Source: Promethearchaeum syntrophicum
Lineage (GTDB): Archaea; Asgardarchaeota; Lokiarchaeia; Sigyniarchaeales; Promethearchaeaceae
Length of the DNA stretch: 32,000 nucleotides
NCBI RefSeq assembly: GCF_008000775.2
Contig: NZ_CP042905.2
Location: 2,160,001-2,192,000, forward strand
Direction of reading: 5' to 3'
Shown here: positions 6,624 to 30,024 of the stretch, piece after piece
How the letters are laid out: every line of letters begins with the position of its first letter
Position numbering within the stretch: the first letter of the stretch is position 1
The notes under the pieces: generated by a model
Told to the model about the DNA's origin: nothing
Databases searched by the model: none
Seen by the model: only the letters and a program-made list of their open reading frames with translations
Position numbers and translations under genes: made by a program

Positions 6624-7151
6624 ATGGCAGACTACGTATTGAAAATATGTTTACTCGGTGATGGAAATGTCGGAAAAACCTCTATCGTTTACCGATATAT
6701 TGAGAACCGTTTTAGTCGTGATTTTAAATCTACTCTTGGTGTAAATTTATTAAAGAAAAAAGTAATCTTAACTGAAGGAGAAAACGCTGGAAAGATCTGT
6801 TCCATCCAAATCTGGGATCTTGGGGGTCAAAACGCCTACAGAAAATTGCGTAAACTCTATTTGGAGGGATCTCAGGGAGCTTTAGTCGTTTTCGATGTCA
6901 CATCTCAGTCTAGTTTTGATCACCTGGATGATTGGATTGAATCACTTATAGAAATCCGTGGGGACAAAGTTCCGATGATTTTAATTGGAAATAAAATTGA
7001 TTTAGAAGCTAATCGGGTTATAAACGAAATGCAAGTGCAGAAATATGCGGACAAATATAATATGCCCATTAAATTTACGAGTGCTGCAACCGGTGAGAAA
7101 GTCGAAACTGCATTTATAGAATTGATCCAAAATATTATAGAAACAATCTAA
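6624..7151 (+). CDS. Rab-like small GTPase (Ras superfamily)
   Basis: G1 GDGNVGKT, switch I KSTLGV, G3 WDLGGQ, G4 GNKIDL, G5 TSAATG. Collinear with eukaryotic Rab over the whole length. GGAG RBS 7 nt upstream of the ATG. Confidence 0.9.
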   Translation: MADYVLKICLLGDGNVGKTSIVYRYIENRFSRDFKSTLGVNLLKKKVILTEGENAGKICSIQIWDLGGQNAYRKLRKLYLEGSQGALVVFDVTSQSSFDHLDDWIESLIEIRGDKVPMILIGNKIDLEANRVINEMQVQKYADKYNMPIKFTSAATGEKVETAFIELIQNIIETI

Positions 7152-7344: not shown

Positions 7345-7899
7345 ATGGCAGAAAATGAGTTCGCAAGCGATTTTATCTTCAAAATTTGCGTGATTGGTGA
7401 CGGCGCTACTGGAAAAACTTCTCTCATTAAAAGATTCACACAAGGATCTTTCAATAAAGATTATATTAAAACTCTTGGTGCGCAGTTTTCAAAATTCGAA
7501 AAAATTATGGAGATTGACGGAAAAGCCATTCGGGCGCGTCTCTTTTTCTGGGATATTGCAGGCCAATCAGAGTTTCGCTTCATGAGGCCGACCTTCTATA
7601 ACGGCGCAAAAGCGACCATTGTTGTCTTTGATTTAACTCGAAAAGAGACGTATGATAATATCCGGACATGGATTGATGATATCACTCAATATTGTGGAAA
7701 ATTACCTACTGTATGCTTTGCTAATAAAAGCGATTTAATAAATGAAGCAGAATTTGATGATAGCGATATAAAAAACCTTTCTAAGGAATTAGAATTCATG
7801 GAATATTATTTGACTTCTGCAAAAACGGGTAAACACGTTCAAGATGCTTTTAATGCAATCATTGATATATTAGTGAAGAAAGCTTTAGCAGAAGGATAA
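7345..7899 (+). CDS. Rab/Ras-like small GTPase (second paralogue)
   Basis: G1 GDGATGKT, switch I IKTLGAQF, G3 WDIAGQ, G4 ANKSDL, G5 TSAKTG. Confidence 0.9.
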   Translation: MAENEFASDFIFKICVIGDGATGKTSLIKRFTQGSFNKDYIKTLGAQFSKFEKIMEIDGKAIRARLFFWDIAGQSEFRFMRPTFYNGAKATIVVFDLTRKETYDNIRTWIDDITQYCGKLPTVCFANKSDLINEAEFDDSDIKNLSKELEFMEYYLTSAKTGKHVQDAFNAIIDILVKKALAEG

Positions 7900-8360: not shown

Positions 8361-8846
8361 ATGAATCGTATTTTACTTGAACAAATGCTACATAAAATGA
8401 GATCTTTCCTGATAAAGGGGAAAAACATTGGAGATTTGAAAATTGGTGCTCTTTATGCCCTTGGGAATCAATTGGATGCCGTTTATTATTTCGTTGGTCA
8501 TGAATTGGGTTCTACAATAGAAACTGGAAGAGATCATATTGTTGATACTTCAATTTTGATTGAAACATTAAAGAATTTTTCAAAAAAATATCATATCGGT
8601 AATATGATTATAGACGAATACAATGATGAGCATATTACCTTTGATCTTGAGGATTGTCCCACATGTAAGGAAATTGAAGTACCATCCACTGAAATATCAC
8701 AAGGATTTTGCTCTTTTGAAGCGGGATTATTTGCCGGTCTAGTCGAGAAATTAACAGGAAAGCATTGTTTTGCCCAAGAATTAGAATGCAAACTCCAAAA
8801 TAAATCTCCAAATTGTAAATTTATGATTGTTATTCCTAAAGATTAG
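8361..8846 (+). CDS. V4R (4-vinyl reductase) domain protein
   Basis: C-terminal GFCSFEAGLFAGLVEKLTGKHCFAQELECKLQNKSPNCKFMIV matches the V4R signature (C.f.aG...G..e...g......E..C...G...C.F.i). GAGGA RBS upstream. Confidence 0.7.
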   Translation: MNRILLEQMLHKMRSFLIKGKNIGDLKIGALYALGNQLDAVYYFVGHELGSTIETGRDHIVDTSILIETLKNFSKKYHIGNMIIDEYNDEHITFDLEDCPTCKEIEVPSTEISQGFCSFEAGLFAGLVEKLTGKHCFAQELECKLQNKSPNCKFMIVIPKD

Positions 8847-9978: not shown

Positions 9979-10272
9979 ATGCCATTATATTATGTATATA
10001 TCCTAAAATGTGAGAACATTAAGAATGGAAATGTAAGTCTCTATACGGGATCAACTCAAGATTTAATGAAACGATTTGAACAACATCGAAAAGGTGTTGG
10101 TGGAGCAAAGTATACGAGAGGAAAAAAACTTGAATTGGTTTATTTTGAGACCCATTTAACAAGAAGTGACGTGATGAAGCGGGAATATGAAATAAAAAGC
10201 TACACTTCTTCAAAAAAATGGGAAATTGTAGATGAATTTCAAAAAAAAATGGAGGATTCGAAATCTAAATGA
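9979..10272 (+). CDS. GIY-YIG nuclease-domain protein (UPF0213/Slx1-like small stand-alone form)
   Basis: YYVYILKC...LYTGSTQDLMKRFEQHRKG...REYEIK carries the GIY..YIG, R..H and E elements of the GIY-YIG fold. Confidence 0.85.
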   Translation: MPLYYVYILKCENIKNGNVSLYTGSTQDLMKRFEQHRKGVGGAKYTRGKKLELVYFETHLTRSDVMKREYEIKSYTSSKKWEIVDEFQKKMEDSKSK

Positions 10273-11156
10273 GTTTAAATTTATTCTTAAACAACTTCAA
10301 AACCTCAAGATATTCAGTTCTAATTCTTTTAATTGGTCTCCCTGCATCGGGAAAAAGTGTAATGGCTCAAAAACTAAAGAGTGAGTTAACAAATAAGCAT
10401 GGATTGAATAAAGTTTACATAATTGACACTGATATTATCCGATTTCGTCTTTTTGGAGCAGATTTTTGCCACACTAATGAAAAATCTGTGGTAGAAGAAA
10501 AAAATAAAGAGGTTTCTGACAAATTAAATCCGGGAAACATTATAATAGTTGATGATCTTCATTATTTAACATCAATGCGACATTATTTCTACGATTTGTG
10601 CAAGAAAAAAGGTGCAATATACATTCCAATTTATCTATCCACACCCATGTCACAATGTAAAAAATGGAATAAAAAGCGTGGATTACCAATTCCTCATGAA
10701 ATTATTGAGGAAATTGCTGCTAAAATTGATATCCCGGGCAAGAAATACCAATGGGATAGAACCCAATTAAATTTTGACCTCACTTCACAAAAAATAGATG
10801 AAAATGTTGAAGAATCGCTTCAACATATTGAAGAAAAATTAAAAAACGAATTTAATGTTTCATCTAAGAATCAATTTACCTTTAAAAATCAGACTTTTAA
10901 TGACCAGAAAATTAAAGACAATTCCTCATTTGATAAGGAATCTAGGATTATTATACACAAAATAATTACAAAAGATTATTCAGATGAAATTTTAACAAAA
11001 ATCGGAAAATATATCAATTTTTCATCATCTAATTTTACAAAACAAATTTCTTCGAAAAGGAAAAAATATGTAAAATGGTTAATCGGTCAAAAATCTCCGC
11101 ATTTAACAATCGAAGAATTTATAACTTTTTTAACAGAAACAAATACAAAATATTAG
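10269..11156 (+). CDS. pstK: L-seryl-tRNA(Sec) kinase (PSTK)-like P-loop kinase
   Basis: P-loop GLPASGKS. IIVDDLHYLTSMRHYF, IPHEIIEEIAAKIDIPGKKYQWD and DKESRIIIHKII are collinear with the archaeal PSTK sequence as I remember it (VDDTNYYNSMRR, IPNEVI...FDEPGKKYKWD, DKETRKIV). The ATG overlaps the GIY-YIG stop (ATGA). Confidence 0.7.
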   Translation: MSLNLFLNNFKTSRYSVLILLIGLPASGKSVMAQKLKSELTNKHGLNKVYIIDTDIIRFRLFGADFCHTNEKSVVEEKNKEVSDKLNPGNIIIVDDLHYLTSMRHYFYDLCKKKGAIYIPIYLSTPMSQCKKWNKKRGLPIPHEIIEEIAAKIDIPGKKYQWDRTQLNFDLTSQKIDENVEESLQHIEEKLKNEFNVSSKNQFTFKNQTFNDQKIKDNSSFDKESRIIIHKIITKDYSDEILTKIGKYINFSSSNFTKQISSKRKKYVKWLIGQKSPHLTIEEFITFLTETNTKY

Positions 11157-11196: not shown

Positions 11197-13509
11197 ATGG
11201 CAATAGGTGATATGGCTCCAACTGACGATGAAAGGAAGATTAAGTCTCTAAGGGTTTCGGAAATAGCAAAAGGTTCTGCAGGAAGATTCATGTGCAGAAT
11301 GAATATTGATATAATTAAAGAATTAGAACTTAAACCTGGTGAAATTGTCGAGATCATTGGAAAACGGAATACTGCTGCGATTTTATTTCCTTCTTCAGAT
11401 AAATCGGATGAGATAATTCGGTTGGATGGATTAACAAGACGTAATGCTGGTGTAGCTATTGGAGAATATGTTAAAGTTCGAAAATGTTATTATTCAGTTG
11501 CGAATAAGGTAGTTCTGAGTTTTATCCAATCGGATCTAAAAATTTCTTCAGAAAACCAAATTAAATTAAATTTACTAAATAAACCCTTAAAAGAAGGGGA
11601 AATTATTAATGTTTCTGGCTCTAATTTAGCAAAGAAAGAACAAGCAGGACCTTACAAGGATTTAAAGGAGATGATGCCTTTTTTAAAATCTCCCACAGTT
11701 TCAATCGGGGAAGTCCAGTTTGCTGTAGTTGATACTGAGCCAAAGGGGATAGTTCAAATCCAAAATTCTACTAATATTGAAATTAAAGAGGGATTTGTGG
11801 CAATTAATACTATGGGTAATATCACCACATATGATGATATAGGGGGATTATCGGATGTAATACAAAGAGTACGGGAAATGATTGAATTACCTCTAAAACA
11901 TCCTGAACTCTTTCAACGCGTTAATATCGATCCTCCTAAAGGTGTTTTACTTCACGGTCCTCCTGGAACAGGAAAAACTTTATTGGCTAGAGCTGTTTCC
12001 CAAGAAGCAAATGCAACGTTTATCACCATAAACGGACCAGAAATTATGAGTAAGTTTTATGGTGCTTCTGAAGAACGTTTACGTAAAATCTTCAAAGAAG
12101 CAGAAACTAAAGCACCTTCAATAATTTTCATTGATGAACTCGATTCTATCGCTCCAAAAAGAGAAAATGTTTCTGGAGAAGTAGAAAGAAGGGTTGTAGC
12201 TCAATTATTAGCCCTTTTAGATGGACTTAAAGGGCGTGGGAGAATAATTGTAATTGGAGCGACTAATAGGATCAATTCTATTGATGAAGCATTAAGAAGA
12301 CCAGGACGATTTGATAGAGAAATTGAATTGCAGGTACCAGATGCTGATGGAAGAAAAGAAATTTTGCAGATACATACACGAGGGATGCCTTTAGATGATA
12401 CCGTAGATTTGGACGAATATGCAAGGCTCTCTCATGGATTTGTTGGGGCTGATTTGATGGCTGTTGCACGTGAAGGTGCGATGTCGTCTCTGAGAAAAAT
12501 TCTTCCTAAGATAGATTTAGATAAACCAATACCTACAGAAATTTTAGATAATTTAGTCATCAACGACGACGATTTCCAAAATGCATTGAGAATGGTTGAA
12601 CCAAGTGCTATGCGCGAAGTTTTAATTGAAATTCCAAACATAGCATGGGATGATGTTGGGGGTTTAAATGAAGTTAAGCAAGAATTACAAGAATCTATTG
12701 AATGGCCCTTAATTTATCCCCACTTATACAAAAAAGCGGGGATTCGTTCCGTAAATGGTGTTCTTCTATTTGGCCCACCTGGTTGTGGGAAAACTCTACT
12801 GGCAAAAGCAGTTGCAACTGAATCAGAAATAAACTTTTTGGCTATAAAAGGACCAGAAATCTTCTCAAAATGGGTAGGGGAAAGTGAAAAAGCCATAAGA
12901 GACATCTTCAGAAAAGCGAGACTCGCAGCGCCTTCTATTATTTATTTCGATGAGCTTGATGCCATTGCTGCCACTAGAGGCGGCGGTATGGGAAATATGA
13001 GCGGTTCTAATGTAGGTATGCAAGTTGTAAATCAAATTCTTGTAGAAATGGACGGTGTTGAGGATCGCAAGGGAGTAATAATTGTAGCTAGTACAAATCG
13101 TCCCGATATTCTTGATCCTGCTTTATTACGTCCAGGTCGTTTTGATCGCATAGTTTACGTTCCCTCTCCAGACGCGAAAGGTCGAAAGAAGATATTAGAG
13201 GTTCATACCAAAGATATGCCAATTTCTGAAGATGTGAAATTAAATTTTTCTGATTTTGCAGAGCAATCTGAGGGTTATAGTGGTGCAGACCTTGAGAACG
13301 TAGTACGTGAGGCAGGTATGCAAGCAATTCGTGAACAATTAGAAGATTTTAAAGAGGTACAATTATCTAATTTTGAGTTTGCTTTTAAAAAAATACCTCC
13401 TTCATTAACTCCAAAGTTAATTCAAAAATATAACGAGATTGCGGATAAGCTTTCTCAACAGAAAATACGTACAATTGCATCTCTAAAAGATCCAGGATTA
13501 TTTACGTGA
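11197..13509 (+). CDS. cdc48: CDC48/VCP/p97-type AAA+ ATPase (two AAA domains)
   Basis: N-domain followed by D1 ([16 protein letters not shown]) and D2 ([16 protein letters not shown]), each with an RPGRFDR second region of homology. Confidence 0.95.
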
Positions 13510-15390: not shown

Positions 15391-15499
15391 TGCGGGGAGA
15401 GGGATTTGAACTCTCGCGGCTCTACGCACTGGATTTCTCATCATCTTGATAAGATTGATTCTGAGTCCAGCATCGTGGACCAGACTTGATTATCCCCGC
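15391..15499 (-). tRNA. tRNA-Leu(CAG), type II (long variable arm), with ~25-nt intron 3' of anticodon position 37
   Basis: Hand fold of the minus strand. The acceptor GCGGGGA/TCCCCGC gives 7 bp, with discriminator A. The D stem is 3 bp (ATC/GAT). The anticodon stem CTGGA/TCCAG flanks the loop CTCAGAA, interrupted at about 15435..15459. The variable arm is 13 nt. The T arm is GAGAG-TTCAAAT-CCCTC with one A-C mismatch. No CCA is encoded. Confidence 0.85.
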
Positions 15500-23052: not shown

Positions 23053-25215
23053 TTATATAAGCCTATTCCCGCATTCTGTACAAAATAATGACTTTCCATC
23101 TGTAATTGGTGCACCACAATTGGTACAAAACTTGAATTTTGCTTTTTGATTTGAAAAATTATCGAATTCATCAAAAATGAAAGAATTGGAGGAACTTGAT
23201 GTTTCTGGTGGGCTATTATCACTCCCAAAAGTTCCTATTGAAGGATTTGTGCCATATATTTGAAAACTACTTGGGGAGTCTCGAATTGGAACTCTCGGCT
23301 TTGGTTTATAGAATTTTTTCCTCCAGATTATAGCAGAAATTGATAAAAATCCAATAACTCCAAGAGTAATAGAAATTCCCCGCATCATAGGATTGCTTAT
23401 CGATTTCAAAGGATTTGTATTTCTGTCGATTTCCTCTTTATCGGTATATTGATCATCATCTGTATCCATATCTAATGGGTCCGTTCCATAAGAAAATTCT
23501 TCAGAATTGATAAGTCCATCACCATCAGGATCGTCAGTTGCATCATCAACTAGCGGATTTGTTCCTTTAAAATATTCCCAACCGTCAGGCATTCCGTCAT
23601 AATCCGTATCTAAAGATAAAGAATCCGTCCCAATTTGAAGCTCAATATCATCGGATAACTCATCATTATCCCAATCTGAATCCCAGAGATTAAAACCAAT
23701 TTCAAATTCATAAGCATCAGAAAGTGAATCACCGTCAAAATCACCACTATAAGATAATCCTAAAGGAGTTAATTCTATGGATTCATTATCAATTTCTGAA
23801 AAACCATTATTAGTTTGAATTGCTTTAAAAGTAATACCCGAAATATCATGACCCGTTAAACTTGAAGCAAATAATTTTTGTTGCCAACCAGCGCTGTTTT
23901 GAATGTTTTCCTCTATTTCGGATCTCACTATTGTTTGTTCTGTAAAATCATAATATACTAATATTAATTTTCCTACTCCAAGACCGCTAAGAGCAAATTC
24001 AATTTGTACTTGGTCATTTCCAGATGGAATAACCGAATTTATCTTCCCATTCGGTTCAAGTATTAATTCACCATCAATTCCATCATATTCCTCAGGATGA
24101 TGAGTAAATCCTAAATAAGTTGACCGATCGACTGTAGAATTATAAATCGCTTCAAAATTTTCTTCATATGATATCACTCCATCATTATTAATATCTGAAT
24201 TATTATCCCACGAATTCAAAAAACTATAAGAAAATACTCCATTTTCACGATACGGATCTTCCAATGAGTATTCTGAACTATTACTTGCTGATATTACATA
24301 TCTATCCGTTTGAGCAAAATCTCGAGCAACGCCTCCACTATGGCAAGAATCCAACAGTGTAACGACCTGACCAGGAACTTCATTAAAATAAGAATTTAGC
24401 GTAGATCCATTTAACCCTGAGTCCAATCCATCATGTGTATTTATGCAATATGAATCTTCCCAGTAACCTACTTCAACTAAATCGATTTCAAATCCCCACT
24501 CGGTTATTGAATAATCAGTGTACAAATTAACATAGATGTCATCACAAGGTATCCAACCAGACCATAAATCGGTATAATCATTATCATATAAAACATAAGC
24601 AGGCCATCTGTCATCATTATCTCCAATATAAATTTCATCAATTTCATCTTCAAGTTCAATTTTTGTAAAGTGAACCCTCATTAGTTCTGCCCCTGGATGA
24701 GAATAATGCCAATAATCATCCATATTATTAGAATATGGATGATTGCTTGCTACATTCCAGCTATATTGAATTGAAGATATTTCTTGAGATCCATGCCCTG
24801 AATAAGAAAAGAATAACACATCATTTTCATTCATCACATCGGAAAAATTGCTAATAGCATAAGAAATATCAGGGATAGTCACCTCAGAATCTATTAATTT
24901 AACGATATTTGAATCAGGTATATGGTAGTTATCTAGGATAAAGTTATATATCTCTTCAGCATCATCATCACAATAGCTTAAATCATTAATAGACCCGGGA
25001 TAATCACTCACTCCACAAATAATTGCATAACCTTCTCTTGGATCTTCGATTGATGAAGATTTTACCTCACCTTCAAATAAATTGTTTCCCTTAAGTTTCT
25101 CACTAATTGTTAAATTACTTTGAATAAATAAAAAGGGAGAGATAAAATTTAATGCTAATATTGAAATAAGAACTATTTCTCTTACAGAAACTTTAGTTTT
25201 ACTCATTTTTATCAT
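23053..25215 (-). CDS. membrane-anchored caspase-fold (peptidase C14-like) protein with CUB-like insertion, beta-sandwich region, thrombospondin-type-3-like Ca-binding repeats, TM helix and C-terminal zinc ribbon
   Basis: N-terminal signal/anchor. YAIICGVSDYPG...DDDAEE...VLFFSYSGHG (catalytic His 141) and VVTLLDSCHSGG (catalytic Cys 291). Five DxDxDGxxDxxE-like repeats (aa ~490-600). TM helix ISITLGVIGFLSISAIIW. CTNC-x12-CTEC zinc ribbon at the C-terminus. An alternative start exists at 25206. Confidence 0.8.
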   Translation of the reverse strand: MIKMSKTKVSVREIVLISILALNFISPFLFIQSNLTISEKLKGNNLFEGEVKSSSIEDPREGYAIICGVSDYPGSINDLSYCDDDAEEIYNFILDNYHIPDSNIVKLIDSEVTIPDISYAISNFSDVMNENDVLFFSYSGHGSQEISSIQYSWNVASNHPYSNNMDDYWHYSHPGAELMRVHFTKIELEDEIDEIYIGDNDDRWPAYVLYDNDYTDLWSGWIPCDDIYVNLYTDYSITEWGFEIDLVEVGYWEDSYCINTHDGLDSGLNGSTLNSYFNEVPGQVVTLLDSCHSGGVARDFAQTDRYVISASNSSEYSLEDPYRENGVFSYSFLNSWDNNSDINNDGVISYEENFEAIYNSTVDRSTYLGFTHHPEEYDGIDGELILEPNGKINSVIPSGNDQVQIEFALSGLGVGKLILVYYDFTEQTIVRSEIEENIQNSAGWQQKLFASSLTGHDISGITFKAIQTNNGFSEIDNESIELTPLGLSYSGDFDGDSLSDAYEFEIGFNLWDSDWDNDELSDDIELQIGTDSLSLDTDYDGMPDGWEYFKGTNPLVDDATDDPDGDGLINSEEFSYGTDPLDMDTDDDQYTDKEEIDRNTNPLKSISNPMMRGISITLGVIGFLSISAIIWRKKFYKPKPRVPIRDSPSSFQIYGTNPSIGTFGSDNSPPETSSSSNSFIFDEFDNFSNQKAKFKFCTNCGAPITDGKSLFCTECGNRLI

Positions 25216-26977: not shown

Positions 26978-27196
26978 TTAGTAAAACTCAATTGCTAAAG
27001 CCATATCTCCTTTGGAGATCTTCTTTCGTTTTGAGTGTTTAGCGAAATTTAACGCCATTGCTGTGAGTTTCTTGCTACGATTTTCTAAATAATTCAATAA
27101 TGCTTCAACAGCATCTCGGCTGACAATTTGTGCACCCGATTTTTTCATTAAGGCCCGTAGTGGGGACCATGCAAATGCTCTTCTTTTCTTTGCCAT
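26978..27196 (-). CDS. archaeal histone (HMf-type histone fold) with short basic N-terminal extension
   Basis: 72 aa. SPLRALMKKSGAQIVSRDAVEALLNYLENRSKKLTAMALNFAKHSKRKKISKGDMALAIEF is collinear with the HMfB helices alpha1-L1-alpha2-L2-alpha3. It is preceded by MAKKRRAFAW. Confidence 0.9.
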   Translation of the reverse strand: MAKKRRAFAWSPLRALMKKSGAQIVSRDAVEALLNYLENRSKKLTAMALNFAKHSKRKKISKGDMALAIEFY

Positions 27197-27846
27197 GATT
27201 TTTCATTCTCCGCTTAGAATATAAGATTTTGTAGAAAATTGTATCTTTTCGTTTTTTTCGAAATAAATATCCAAAAAGGCTACAATCTAAGTAAAATATA
27301 GTAATTTATCTTTTTAAAGGTTTGGGAGATTTGGGGTAAAAATCTTATCCAAATTCAATGGATCGGAAATTCTATCGACAAAAATCTTTGATCCAGAAAA
27401 CCAAATCTTATAATTTCCACGCTCGGGAATATCAAAATTGGGGAAAAAATAAAGATCGATCTGGGAAAATTGAGGGATGTTATAATATTAAGAAATTTGG
27501 AAATATTTTAAATTAAGGGTAAAAAAGTTTTATTGATTAATTAGAATCTTCAATATTCCTTTATGATTTTTAATACCAATTTATTAGATTAATGGAATTG
27601 ATATCATTTAGGAAAAATTAAGAAAAAATTTTTAAAATGATATCGAGATTTATAAAAAGATCGAATCATTAAATTATCCAAATTTGATGAGAATTAACTA
27701 CATCGATTACTAAAATAATTGGGATGGATAAAAAATCATATTAAAGGCGATAATCAATCAATACTACAGATTTCTTAGAATATAAAAAAACTATTATTAA
27801 TTTCTTCATTGAAGAATGATTTTTTTATTAGCAATTCAAAAATATT

Positions 27847-29013
27847 ATGATGGAAGAAAATCTTGAAAATTGGATAATTTTATTAGATTGCACAAAATCC
27901 ATGAATAGAGAAGATTTTCCTCCAAATAGATTCCAAACTGCATTAAGTGGAATCAAAATCTTTATTGAAGAAAAATCTAAGGCATTAAAGAAAGTTAGAA
28001 TATCCATAATCACATTTAATAAAAAAATTTCAGTTGTTTCTGAGTTGACTGATGATGTTGATTCAACCATTGAATTAATTTCAAATAAAAAATTTAAAAA
28101 AATGAATCTCTCATCAGGTTCAATAAATATGTTGGATAATGCATTAAATGAAGCATTAGAGATTCTTGGTCAACAAATTCAAAATATTTCTGGATTTTAT
28201 AATTGTATATTGTTAATTTCTGATACGGAAGATCTTAATATTTCGGAAAAAACCCAAAAAAAAATCAAAGGATTACAAATTTCGATAAATATTATAACAT
28301 TTTCACTTGAGAAAAATAACGCTAATATGTATTTTCCATTGAAAGCTCAACATTTTACTACTAAACAAGATCTTTTGAATGGAATGAAGGAACTTGCCTT
28401 ATTAAAAAAAAAAGAAAAAAATAATGCTCAACATTTTTCAGAAATAATGTTAGAACATGGAAAAAAAACTCGCGATTTCATGGAAGAAATTGCTTTAAAA
28501 TTGAGATATCCAACACTTGATGAATTAATCAAATTTAATAAGAAATCAAGAAAAATCAATTGCCAAATATGTTTCAGCAAAATTTCCCCCATTAAAAAAT
28601 ATTCACTTTATAAAACTGGAAGATTATGCCCCCATTGTGGGACGCCAATGCACCTTCATTGTGCGGGAACATGGGCTCTTAAATCATCAGAACACAAAGG
28701 TTTATTCAGATGCCCATATTGTTATACTCTTCTAAAAATTCCGGGAGCAATTTTAAATGGTCTTAATAAAAAAAGCAATAAAAAAGAAGGATCAGAATCT
28801 AAAAAACAATTAGTTAAAATGATTGTTATTGGACCTGAAAAACTTAAACAGAAATATTCTGATTGCTTGTATTGTTTTAAACCAATAAAAAATGTTTCAT
28901 TTCAGAAAACTTTTCAATGCAGTAATTGTAAAGCATATTTTCATAAAAAATGCCTGGAAGAGATGTATAAATTAGATAAAAAATGTTTAAATTGCAATGG
29001 AAATATTGTTTAG
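27847..29013 (+). CDS. von Willebrand factor A (vWA) domain protein with two C-terminal C4HC3 RING/PHD-type zinc fingers
   Basis: N-terminal WIILLDCTKSMNREDFPPNRFQ (a MIDAS-like DxTxS; it resembles the Rpn10 vWA segment IDNSEWMRNGDY.PSRFQ) and LLISDTED. Finger 1 spans aa 239-292: C-x2-C-x18-C-x2-C-x4-H-x2-C-x16-C-x2-C. Finger 2 spans aa 340-383: C-x2-C-x14-C-x2-C-x4-H-x2-C-x10-C-x2-C. Confidence 0.75.
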   Translation: MMEENLENWIILLDCTKSMNREDFPPNRFQTALSGIKIFIEEKSKALKKVRISIITFNKKISVVSELTDDVDSTIELISNKKFKKMNLSSGSINMLDNALNEALEILGQQIQNISGFYNCILLISDTEDLNISEKTQKKIKGLQISINIITFSLEKNNANMYFPLKAQHFTTKQDLLNGMKELALLKKKEKNNAQHFSEIMLEHGKKTRDFMEEIALKLRYPTLDELIKFNKKSRKINCQICFSKISPIKKYSLYKTGRLCPHCGTPMHLHCAGTWALKSSEHKGLFRCPYCYTLLKIPGAILNGLNKKSNKKEGSESKKQLVKMIVIGPEKLKQKYSDCLYCFKPIKNVSFQKTFQCSNCKAYFHKKCLEEMYKLDKKCLNCNGNIV

Positions 29014-29019
29014 ATTAAT

Positions 29020-30024
29020 ATGAAAGTTCTTATCACTGGAGCTACGGGTTTTATTGGAGGAGATTTGGTAAAAGAAAACATCAATAAAGGGAATATCGTC
29101 AAAGTATTAGTTTTGAAAGATGATCCTGGAGAAAATTTACTACGTGAGAAGGGTGTTGAAATAGTAATCGGGGACATTGCAAATTATTCTGATGTCGAAA
29201 AAGCTTGTGAAGGCGTTGATGTAATTTTCCATTGTGCTGGGATTGTAACTGATTTTGCCCCTTATCAACTCTATGTTGATGTTAATGTAATAGGAATGGA
29301 AAATATCTGCAAAGCAGCTGTAAAGGTTCAAGTTAAACGCTTAGTTTATATGTCAACGAATGATGTTTTTGGACCAATTGAAGATGTTGTAATAGATGAA
29401 ACTTTTCCATTAAAAAAATGGGGTGAACCGTACCCAGATACTAAAATTGAAGCAGAAGAAATCGCTTGGAAGTATTATAGGGAGAATAAATTGCCTGTGA
29501 CTATGGTATATGGTTGTTGGGTATTTGGAATTGGGGATAAAACATTTGTTCCTTTAGTGGCGGATTCCATAGTGAAAAAAGAACTTATTTTCTGGAGAAA
29601 GAATGTCCATGTCTGGCCAAATTACATTGAAAATCTTGTTGATCTTTTAATGCTCATATCAGAAGATGAACGTGCTATTGGAAATGGTTATCTTGTTCAT
29701 GATGGAGAAATGGTTACTTTTCAAGATTTTTGCAAGCAAATCGCCGAGACATTAGGTGTTAAACCTATTAAAACCCATATTCCTTACTTATTGGCAAAAA
29801 TGGCTGGTTGGATTTTAGAGAAATGGTGGAGAGTTACTAAAAAAAAGACAAGACCTCTCCTAACAACCTATACCGTCACAAATTTAGGTTCGAGGTTGAA
29901 TTTTTCAATTGAAAAAGCTGAAAGAGAATTGGGATGGGTTCCAAAGATTCCCTTTAAAGATGGTATGGAAAAAACCATGATTTGGCTTAAAACTCTGGAT
30001 TTGGAGACGTTAAAAGAAAAATAA
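29020..30024 (+). CDS. NAD(P)-dependent epimerase/dehydratase (extended SDR) family protein
   Basis: MKVLITGATGFIGG Rossmann motif, catalytic YPDTK (YxxxK), 334 aa. It starts 6 nt after the vWA-RING stop. Confidence 0.88.
   Translation: MKVLITGATGFIGGDLVKENINKGNIVKVLVLKDDPGENLLREKGVEIVIGDIANYSDVEKACEGVDVIFHCAGIVTDFAPYQLYVDVNVIGMENICKAAVKVQVKRLVYMSTNDVFGPIEDVVIDETFPLKKWGEPYPDTKIEAEEIAWKYYRENKLPVTMVYGCWVFGIGDKTFVPLVADSIVKKELIFWRKNVHVWPNYIENLVDLLMLISEDERAIGNGYLVHDGEMVTFQDFCKQIAETLGVKPIKTHIPYLLAKMAGWILEKWWRVTKKKTRPLLTTYTVTNLGSRLNFSIEKAERELGWVPKIPFKDGMEKTMIWLKTLDLETLKEK

Follow-up and report, generated by a model that had tools for sequence, protein, structure and literature searches.

A Lokiarchaeota-specific vWA protein with two tandem RING-type fingers, a candidate component of the Asgard ubiquitin system

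The gene and its product

The window, i.e. the whole 32,000-nucleotide stretch of the genome of the cultured Promethearchaeum syntrophicum MK-D1 analysed here, carries an open reading frame (ORF) at 27847-29013 on the forward strand, exactly where the initial annotation had placed it, which encodes 388 amino acids (aa) if translation begins at the first ATG; the stop codon falls within these coordinates. The product is a cytosolic, Lokiarchaeota-specific multidomain RING protein, in which an N-terminal vWA domain is followed by two tandem C4HC3 zinc fingers, hereafter fingers 1 and 2. We describe below the evidence that both fingers are of the predicted cross-brace RING type and that finger 1 has conserved the residues through which RING ubiquitin ligases (E3) contact ubiquitin-conjugating enzymes (E2), and we weigh a role in the ubiquitin system against four other explanations. 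The corresponding nr entry is 387 aa long and most homologues start with MEENLENW, so translation more likely starts at the second ATG (27850), probably yielding 387 aa. The databases describe the gene as 'vWA domain protein' only, JGI labels some family members 'ChlD' or 'YegL', and neither in Pfam nor in NCBIfam did we find a model dedicated to this vWA-tandem-RING family.

The features of the gene, including a sequence resembling a metal ion-dependent adhesion site (MIDAS) in the vWA domain, are the following:

27847-29013, forward strand: coding sequence of the vWA-tandem-RING protein (ORF, nr entry and homologue alignment)
27862-28401, forward strand: vWA domain, residues ~6-185, modelled as an alternating beta-alpha, Rossmann-like fold (Pfam, PDB profile matches and AlphaFold2 (AF2) secondary structure)
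27886-27933, forward strand: MIDAS-like D14-C-T16-K-S18, then M-x3-D-F-P-P-N-R-F (translation and family conservation)
28474-28542, forward strand: conserved linker motif, residues ~210-232, EEIALKLRYPTxEEL (alignment)
28561-28737, forward strand: finger 1, C239-K297, C4HC3, predicted RING of the FANCL/NSE1/SLX1-like variant type (ligands, profile and model)
28738-28863, forward strand: inter-finger linker, residues 298-339, with a helix at 300-310 and a conserved VKMI beta-strand (alignment and models)
28864-29010, forward strand: finger 2, C340-V388, C4HC3, RING-H2-like by its sequence profile (ligands and profile)

The two linkers are themselves conserved. In the motif at residues 210-232, A216 is invariant and E214, I215, L219, R220 and E226 are nearly so, and its FxExIA core reappears in relatives of the family that have only one finger (see below); between the fingers, K324 and M325 are nearly invariant.

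Two tandem C4HC3 fingers of predicted RING type

The ligands are arranged as C239-x2-C242-x18-C261-x2-C264-x4-H269-x2-C272-x16-C289-x2-C292 in finger 1 and as C340-x2-C343-x14-C358-x2-C361-x4-H366-x2-C369-x10-C380-x2-C383 in finger 2, and the identical core spacing of the two, which had been pointed out at the outset, is thus readily seen in the translated sub-regions. In the 37 aligned members, the most distant of which shows 27% identity, 15 ligands out of 16 are invariant and the remaining one, C369, is present in 36. The Trp four residues after the sixth ligand of finger 1 (W276), also singled out initially, is invariant (37/37), and Ile241, Arg288 and Pro290 are nearly invariant. As the ligands and W276 are kept in homologues this distant, the fingers are not a chance arrangement of Cys and His. 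When the two fingers were compared with hhalign, they aligned with a probability of 93.9% and an E-value of 1.6e-7 with all eight ligands in register, an alignment by which fingers 1 and 2 are homologous to each other.

To place the fingers among known zinc-binding folds, each was cut from the 37-member alignment and its profile searched against PDB sequences. The finger 2 profile matches Arkadia at 2.6e-8, RNF4 at 4e-7, RNF24 at 6.4e-7, ARK2C at 8e-7, Pirh2 at 1.6e-6, HRD1 at 4.9e-6, AMFR at 7.9e-6 and RNF38 at 8.8e-6, and besides Arkadia more than 20 other RING E3s fall below 1e-4. PHD fingers are found as well (MLL3 at 7e-7, KMT2D at 1e-5 and TAF3 at 1e-4), as are, well behind, PKC C1 domains at 5e-5. 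The finger 1 profile finds the C4HC3 variant RINGs of FANCL (3.2e-3), SLX1 (8.5e-3) and NSE1 (1.4e-2), to which it aligns weakly, ligand for ligand; its CxIC, H-x2-C-x3-W and CPxC elements align with the same elements of FANCL, and both proteins lack an Arg/Lys linchpin. These three proteins differ from ours in their N-terminal domains (ELF/URD in FANCL, a winged helix in NSE1 and a GIY-YIG nuclease in SLX1) and have no vWA domain. With the RING-H2 E3s (Arkadia/RNF111, ARK2C/RNF165, RNF38, RNF24, HRD1 and AMFR, 2.6e-8 to 1e-5 with the finger 2 profile) the differences lie in the fingers: ligands 3 and 4 are C-x-H in RING-H2 and C-x2-C here, and in finger 2 the helix Trp is replaced by Met, no Pro follows ligand 7 and the linchpin Arg is Gly. 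The Pfam model zf-RING_2 matches residues 238-292 of the query at 24.5 bits, below its gathering score of 27.3, and matches 22 of the 23 family members scanned.

The AF2 model computed for residues 205-388 with the 37-sequence alignment has high confidence (predicted local distance difference test, pLDDT, 90.5; predicted template-modelling score, pTM, 0.86), which suggests that the two fingers would form one rigid unit. Its best solved matches in Foldseek are Ark2C/RNF165, TRIM37, RNF38, HRD1, RNF24, RNF4, EL5 and APC11; it superposes on RING-H2 E3s at 2-3 Å, and on HRD1 with a template-modelling score (TM-score) of 0.71 and a root-mean-square deviation (rmsd) of 2.7 Å. Note that the Foldseek E-values are weak (0.013-0.5, with probabilities up to 1.0), as expected for domains of only ~60 residues. 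No plain zinc ribbon appears among the Foldseek matches of the finger model; those that are not RINGs are PHD fingers and C2H2 arrays of low probability. Zinc ribbons were rejected on these RING-domain matches of the modelled fold and on the Pfam Zn_ribbon and DZR models, which give E>2. Overall, the finger 2 profile and the modelled fold agree with the initial annotation of RING/PHD-type cross-brace fingers rather than zinc ribbons, and by profile and model both fingers are predicted to be of the cross-brace RING type.

We also considered a C1 domain for finger 2, as Pfam C1_1 matches residues 338-373 of the query and all 23 members. This match is partial, covering only model positions 12-46 of 53, and sub-threshold (21.5 bits against a gathering score of 26.5), and the full motif of the DAG/phorbol-ester-binding C1 domain, H-x12-C-x2-C-x13/14-C-x2-C-x4-H-x2-C-x7-C, is not found, finger 2 having no N-terminal His ligand and a C-terminal part that reads C-x10-C-x2-C. 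With RING-H2 matches ~1000-fold stronger, the C1 assignment was rejected.

A putative E2-binding face on finger 1

The residues at the four positions of each finger that correspond to E2 contacts were scored over the 37 sequences:

After ligand 1 (Ile position): finger 1, I 35, V 2; finger 2, Y 15, F 8, otherwise mixed
Four residues after ligand 6 (Trp position): finger 1, W 37; finger 2, M 26, W 1, otherwise mixed
After ligand 7 (Pro position): finger 1, P 35, V 2; finger 2, variable, P 3
After ligand 8 (linchpin): finger 1, Y 26, F 10, L 1, never R/K; finger 2, G 25, K 3, R 1

Finger 1 of the query thus keeps Ile241, Trp276 and Pro290, with Tyr293 at the linchpin position, and in finger 2 of the query the contact positions have degenerated (Tyr/Phe, Met, a variable residue and Gly); the Lys and Arg counted at the finger 2 linchpin occur only in divergent members. 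Since the homologous finger 2 serves as an internal control and varies freely at the same places, the Ile, Trp and Pro of finger 1 are not required by the fold, and their near-invariance indicates a conserved binding surface, on sequence grounds equivalent to the E2-binding face of RING E3s. Two of these positions have been probed in an archaeal protein: in srfp, the small RING E3 of Caldiarchaeum subterraneum, I30, W58 and R69 are needed for E2-dependent ubiquitylation (Hennell James et al, PMC5654768), and the Ile and Trp are the positions that finger 1 also conserves. srfp is a small single RING with C3H2C3 ligands, an Arg linchpin and a place in an operon with ubiquitin, E1 and E2, and it has Lokiarchaeal homologues, e.g. 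DSAG12_00657; the query differs from it in being 388 aa long, in combining a vWA domain with two C4HC3 RINGs, and in lacking both the linchpin and a link to a ubiquitin operon.

The vWA domain

Pfam recognises the N-terminal domain as VWA_2 (1.1e-11, residues 10-127) and VWA (6.5e-6). The MIDAS-like motif that had been read in this domain is found as DCTKS, encoded at 27886-27900 in the translated sub-region, and its residues are largely kept: in 23 members D14 is present in 22, T/S16 in 23, S18 in 17 and D126 in 19, a Gly occupying position 126 in the Harpocratesius group. From these counts the MIDAS of the family appears mostly intact.

When the family profile was searched against PDB sequences, the best solved relatives of the vWA domain were Rpn10 (1.4e-10 to 5e-9) and p44/Ssl1 (2.3e-8 to 2e-6), with complement C2 (~3e-6), BABAM1 (5e-5) and BatB (0.018) further off. 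The segment NREDFPPNRFQ had been described as closely Rpn10-like. The resemblance holds, as HMMER aligns the segment with Rpn10 and with p44, and its specificity does not: the underlying motif, D-x-[ST]-x-S-M-x3-D-[FY]-x-P-x-R-[FL], is found in Rpn10 and equally in bacterial BatA-type vWAs, for example as DISSSMMTEDFSPNRMEVARK in a protein that has a BatA N-terminal domain. Nor could the vWA domain be set apart from ordinary bacterial ones, since the nearest non-family proteins in the exhaustive search described below are Rpn10 orthologues and bacterial BatA-type vWAs, both at E ~1e-9. The Pfam Ssl1 model (PF04056) scores 25.0 bits on the query, below its gathering score of 27, and matches 18 of the 23 members (best 2.7e-9); because bacterial vWAs and Rpn10 orthologues score 31-53 bits with it as well, the model does not discriminate between them. 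By sequence, therefore, the domain falls within VWA_2, a broad clade to which BatA, Rpn10 and p44 also belong, and these data do not place it more finely.

Distribution of the family

A word-index search returned 25 homologues, and an exhaustive HMMER search of the family profile against 1.84 billion representative proteins returned 718 matches at E<=1e-3, 45 of them at E<=1e-30; ~40 of the best are full-length and have the same architecture. Scanning one genome per GTDB species, we found 14 genuine loci, all in Promethearchaeota (the current NCBI name for the former Lokiarchaeota), whose carriers include Promethearchaeum species and Harpocratesius repetitus; a 38-residue bacterial match in the same scan was spurious. 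All named relatives from the exhaustive search are Promethearchaeota or Helarchaeota, the two-finger family being confined to Lokiarchaeota and the one-finger relatives occurring in Lokiarchaeota and Helarchaeota. The latter, which form a second tier of matches, combine a vWA domain, often with a degenerate MIDAS, with finger 1 and lack finger 2, some adding long C-terminal extensions or a double zinc ribbon. That they keep finger 1 suggests, from sequence comparison, that this finger is the core element of the family.

Among these one-finger relatives (P0095, P0100, P0116, P0126 and P0133), many have a CPxCG-x7-9-[FY]CxxCG double zinc ribbon at the C-terminus, and P0133, of 1113 aa, adds a long coiled-coil-like region. 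In the Helarchaeota proteins P0055 and P0064 (620-690 aa), the MIDAS is canonical and the C-terminal region is large and uncharacterised.

Close paralogous vWA-RING genes, two or three per genome, were observed at five of the loci compared (L004, L006, L018, L019 and L023). The second paralogue lies within a few kb (L004:6966-8222(-), L006:8245-9459(-), L018:7245-8546(+), L019:41-775(+) and L023:9393-10613(-)) and belongs either to another two-finger subfamily or to the one-finger proteins; the copies of L006 and L023 sit just past the methionyl-tRNA synthetase (MetRS) gene, on the opposite strand. This arrangement suggests a recurrent pair of paralogous genes, reminiscent of p44 and p34.

A candidate ubiquitin ligase or adaptor

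The reading we favour, to which we give about an even chance, is that the protein is a lineage-specific RING-type E3 ligase, or an E3-like adaptor, of the Asgard ubiquitin system. The docking surface of finger 1, made of Ile241, of Trp276 on the central helix and of Pro290, would recruit a charged E2, e.g. DSAG12_00996. Finger 2, as a homologous copy that has lost the contact residues, would pack on finger 1 as its intramolecular structural partner, a role that we liken to that of the inactive partner in heterodimeric RING E3s, and the vWA domain, with its largely intact MIDAS, would serve as a module binding substrates or partners.

The initial annotation would have been refuted by the lack of a ubiquitin-like system in the genome. 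The section of the MK-D1 gene table considered here (PMC7015854) lists a ubiquitin-like protein (DSAG12_00424), an E2 with the UBC fold (DSAG12_00996, PF00179 at 6e-23), a Urm1-like protein, a ThiF-like protein and a 182-aa RING protein (DSAG12_00657), the last being the only eukaryotic signature protein (ESP) with a RING domain in that section. Because MK-D1 encodes ubiquitin-like, E2 and RING proteins, the proposal does not fail for want of a ubiquitin system in the genome. According to the same section of the table, these genes are scattered around the genome.

Several observations weigh against this role. The Arg/Lys linchpin after the last Cys is missing from both fingers of the query, and R69, its equivalent in srfp, is required for full activity (PMC5654768); any ligase activity would therefore likely be non-canonical or weak. 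Note that FANCL itself has Asn or Ser at this position in the finger 1 profile alignments. No ubiquitin, E1, E2 or JAB/deubiquitinase gene lies in the window or adjacent to the gene in ~20 loci, which is weak evidence against an E3 role given that the ubiquitin genes of MK-D1 are dispersed. Finger 1 resembles known RINGs weakly, at an E-value of 3.2e-3 at best; the ligand spacing of both fingers is a PHD pattern, and finger 2 matches the PHD finger of MLL3 nearly as well as it matches RINGs; the full-length model is closest to Ssl1/p44, which is mainly a scaffold; and all structural inference is drawn from AlphaFold models. The original suggestion of an E3-like or adaptor protein is partly supported: the predicted RING type of the fingers, the E2-contact residues and the ubiquitin system of the genome speak for it, and the linchpin and neighbouring ubiquitin genes are lacking.

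Alternative explanations

The strongest alternative, which we regard as unlikely while taking it seriously, is a non-catalytic scaffold of the p44/Ssl1 kind, whose vWA and zinc modules would assemble a complex, either together with paralogues in the style of p44 and p34 or by regulating a helicase such as XPD. The full-length model (pLDDT 80.3, pTM 0.76) was compared with the PDB using Foldseek, and the top 13 matches are full-length Ssl1/p44 chains from TFIIH, aligned over 381-404 columns (E 1.8e-13 to 4.8e-11) and with the same order of modules, i.e. a vWA domain and then two zinc modules of which the last is a RING-type cross-brace; p44 entries with the vWA domain only (7e-11 to 4e-10), BatB (1.3e-9) and Rpn10 (2e-9) score less well. 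A scaffold would also agree with the match of the vWA profile to p44 (2.3e-8), with the paralogous vWA-RING genes near five of the loci, and with finger 2, which has no E2-contact residues, like the RING of p44, which binds the vWA domain of p34 (PMC6422496).

The closer comparison does not extend this likeness to the zinc modules. p44 (GTF2H2) starts with an N-terminal extension, followed by a vWFA domain, an extended C4 zinc finger (eZnF) interlocking with p34 and a C-terminal C4C4 RING (PMC6422496). The query has no N-terminal extension, a complete C4HC3 RING with eight ligands takes the place of the eZnF in the middle, and the last finger has a His at ligand 5. We found no p44-type eZnF between the vWA domain and the last finger, the linker at residues 186-238 being devoid of Cys/His ligands; Pfam C1_4 (PF07975) matches neither the query at E<=10 nor any of the 23 members at E<=0.01; and the p44 RING is missing from the PDB match lists of both finger profiles. 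As the TM-score hardly rises from vWA-only to full p44 matches (0.39 to 0.42) and the rmsd is ~22 Å, the spatial arrangement of the modules differs from that of p44. Moreover, the Pfam Ssl1 model is non-discriminating, the family is restricted to Lokiarchaeota, none of the XPD, p34, p62 and p52 genes is adjacent in the loci examined, and a scaffold gives no reason why finger 1 so strongly conserves Ile, Trp and Pro. Orthology with p44 was rejected for the lack of the eZnF, of the C4C4 RING and of the N-terminal extension. The initial comparison with p44 is therefore retained for the order of the modules and the best whole-protein structural match, and dropped for family membership: the protein is p44-like in layout and not a member of the p44 family.

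One or both C4HC3 fingers could instead be PHD-like readers that bind the tail of a histone or another lysine-rich tail, the vWA domain bringing a further partner; we consider this improbable. The C-x2-C-xn-C-x2-C-x4-H-x2-C-xn-C-x2-C spacing is that of PHD fingers, the match of finger 2 to MLL3 has been given above, 10 of the 23 members match Pfam PHD weakly and below threshold, and a histone gene lies divergently upstream. Two residues ahead of ligand 7, at the place of the conserved PHD Trp, finger 1 shows the aromatic Phe287 (in 32 of 37) and finger 2 none. Against these stand the stronger RING-H2 profile matches (2.6e-8 for Arkadia versus 7e-7 for MLL3) and the structural matches of the finger model, which are dominated by RING E3 domains and in which the PHD entries are the atypical VIN3 finger (probability 0.63-0.75) and tandem PHDs of the DPF type (0.18-0.33, rmsd >12 Å). 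The Trp at +4 after ligand 6 and the CxIC element are features of RING-H2 and not of PHD, and the histone gene is adjacent only in the genus Promethearchaeum.

The chance is slim that the protein is an ordinary prokaryotic vWA of the BatA type, partner of a MoxR protein, whose MIDAS captures a ligand and whose accessory fingers have nothing to do with ubiquitin. Its vWA domain is as close to BatA-type bacterial vWAs as to Rpn10 orthologues (E ~1e-9), shares with them the DxSxSM-x3-D[FY]xPxR[FL] motif, matches BatB structurally at 1.3e-9, and belongs to a family some of whose members bear the names 'ChlD' and 'YegL'. No MoxR/AAA+ partner gene is adjacent in ~20 loci, however, the N-terminal membrane segment of BatA is missing, the vWA domain beginning at residue ~6, and two strictly conserved RING-type modules would be unaccounted for.

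Very unlikely indeed is a ubiquitin receptor of the Rpn10 type docking through its vWA domain on the proteasome or the CDC48 machine, which the best solved vWA relative (Rpn10, 1.4e-10) and a CDC48 gene in the same window could suggest, as neither a ubiquitin-interacting motif (UIM) nor another known ubiquitin-binding motif was found, CDC48 is ~14 kb away and unlinked in other loci, the vWA motif is not Rpn10-specific, and the 19S lid, into which Rpn10 docks, is not known from archaea. Rpn10/S5a (PSMD4) shares with the query the closest solved vWA domain and the D-x-S-x-x-M-x3-D[FY]-x-P-x-R motif and differs in having C-terminal UIMs and no zinc fingers. UIM models match neither the query nor any of the 23 members, while the Rpn10-like outgroup P0157 does match UIM_2; membership of Rpn10 fails on this ground, and the original description of an Rpn10-like protein was abandoned, the motif being common to BatA-type proteins.

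Place among archaeal and eukaryotic RING proteins

This is a RING protein in a domain combination undescribed for archaea in the literature searched, with its closest analogues in eukaryotes, namely p44/Ssl1 and the E3s that unite vWA and RING. Our literature search for Asgard vWA, RING, p44 and Ssl1 yielded no description of the family (the 2011 survey of prokaryotic RINGs by Burroughs et al, which possibly mentions vWA-RING fusions, lay outside this search), and the archaeal ubiquitin ligases in the literature searched are only small single-RING proteins, some of them in ubiquitin/E1/E2 operons. In plants, RGLG1/2 and the WAV3 family are E3s with vWA and RING in one chain; the RING is N-terminal in WAV3, and RGLG joins a copine-type vWA to a single RING-HC. 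The fungal Ste5 and Far1 also combine the two in one chain (PMC3023161), again with an N-terminal RING. None of RGLG, WAV3, Ste5 and Far1 has two tandem C4HC3 RINGs, and we detected no sequence relationship with them here.

Among viral models in BFVD, the matches to the full-length model are generic vWAs; they include, from Yasminevirus, a 280-aa vWA protein named 'RING zinc finger-containing protein' and, from Hokovirus, a 1329-aa protein that bears a vWA domain and is annotated as an E2 ubiquitin-conjugating enzyme, suggesting that giant viruses also combine vWA with ubiquitin-system domains.

The family bears on how eukaryotes gained multidomain E3s that recruit substrates: it joins a RING with intact E2-contact residues, a vWA binding domain and a second, degenerate RING, a layout like that of an E3 which recruits its substrates and carries its own RING partner. 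The protein would be a conserved archaeal candidate for such an enzyme, from the sole Asgard lineage with cultured strains, and MK-D1 proteins have already been expressed heterologously (bioRxiv 10.1101/2025.11.01.685982). Should it not be an E3, it would still be a conserved zinc scaffold specific to Lokiarchaeota.

It is also conceivable, as a long shot, that the family and its nearby paralogues are a surviving archaeal relative of the lineage behind p44/Ssl1 and p34/Tfb4 of TFIIH. E3 activity has been reported for p44, and to our knowledge the origin of p44 is unexplained. If this were true, the p44 scaffold would descend from an Asgard vWA-RING ubiquitin ligase, and the TFIIH core would gain an archaeal root beyond XPB and XPD; the family offers a concrete archaeal candidate for comparison with p44.

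Gene neighbourhood

The genes and the spacer flanking the vWA-RING gene are the following:

26978-27196, reverse strand: histone gene, divergent, upstream of the spacer
27197-27846, no strand assigned: intergenic spacer of 650 bp between the divergent histone and vWA-RING genes, presumably holding both promoters
29020-30024, forward strand: NAD-dependent epimerase/3-beta-HSD family gene, starting 7 bp after the vWA-RING stop codon
30060-32000, forward strand: MetRS gene, running off the end of the window, a conserved downstream neighbour

MetRS is the most constant of these neighbours. In 13 of 18 loci, and in L023 besides, it immediately follows the vWA-RING gene on the same strand (in all, this window, L003, L006-L013, L016, L017, L020 and L023), down to ~30% protein identity, and carries a C-terminal tRNA_bind domain. 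The gap between the two genes is 62-315 bp where nothing intervenes; an epimerase gene stands between them in six loci, including this window, and a GH31 gene in L023. This neighbourhood may reflect an operon or a shared function, or a gene order inherited within one class.

As to the surroundings noted initially, the spacer and the upstream histone gene are in place, and CDC48 is indeed in the window (11197-13509, forward strand), without being linked. The histone adjacency is restricted to the genus Promethearchaeum and was rejected as a trait of the family; a functional link with CDC48 was likewise rejected, as it lies ~14 kb from the vWA-RING gene and is not syntenic in other loci. A KTI12-family gene (10269-11156, forward strand, 8.7e-30) is found 40 bp upstream of CDC48 on the same strand.

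Next to the histone start codon, on its upstream side, ~280 nt of the spacer (27197-27480) occur in five copies with ~90% DNA identity in four Promethearchaeum species, the other copies being L007:61-340, L007:2348-2630, L008:9532-9815 and L009:815-1100. The two copies in L007 each adjoin a histone gene. DNA conservation falls away past this element, and the vWA-RING proteins of the same species are only ~70% identical to the query. A 52-aa ORF in the spacer (27358-27516) was rejected as coding because 1-nt indels shift its frame in other species, from which we take the element to be non-coding. It has no Rfam match, and its folding energy is ordinary on either strand (z -1.0 and +0.6). The element could be a long histone leader, a promoter region or an unknown non-coding RNA.

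Farther upstream, two genes from the vWA-RING gene, a 720-aa protein with an N-terminal caspase domain (Peptidase_C14) and bacterial TSP3 repeats is encoded at 23053-25215 on the reverse strand. Rfam reports a tRNA of 109 nt at 15391-15499 on the reverse strand (39.9 bits) that ARAGORN does not report, and which may be an intron-containing archaeal tRNA. Two tandem genes for small GTPases of the Ras/Roc family (6624-7151 and 7345-7899, forward strand; Ras at 1.9e-46 and 7e-41) are followed by a gene for a V4R-domain protein (8361-8846, forward strand). Small GTPases figure among the ESPs of MK-D1, and in L023 an Arf/Roc GTPase gene lies immediately upstream of the vWA-RING gene.

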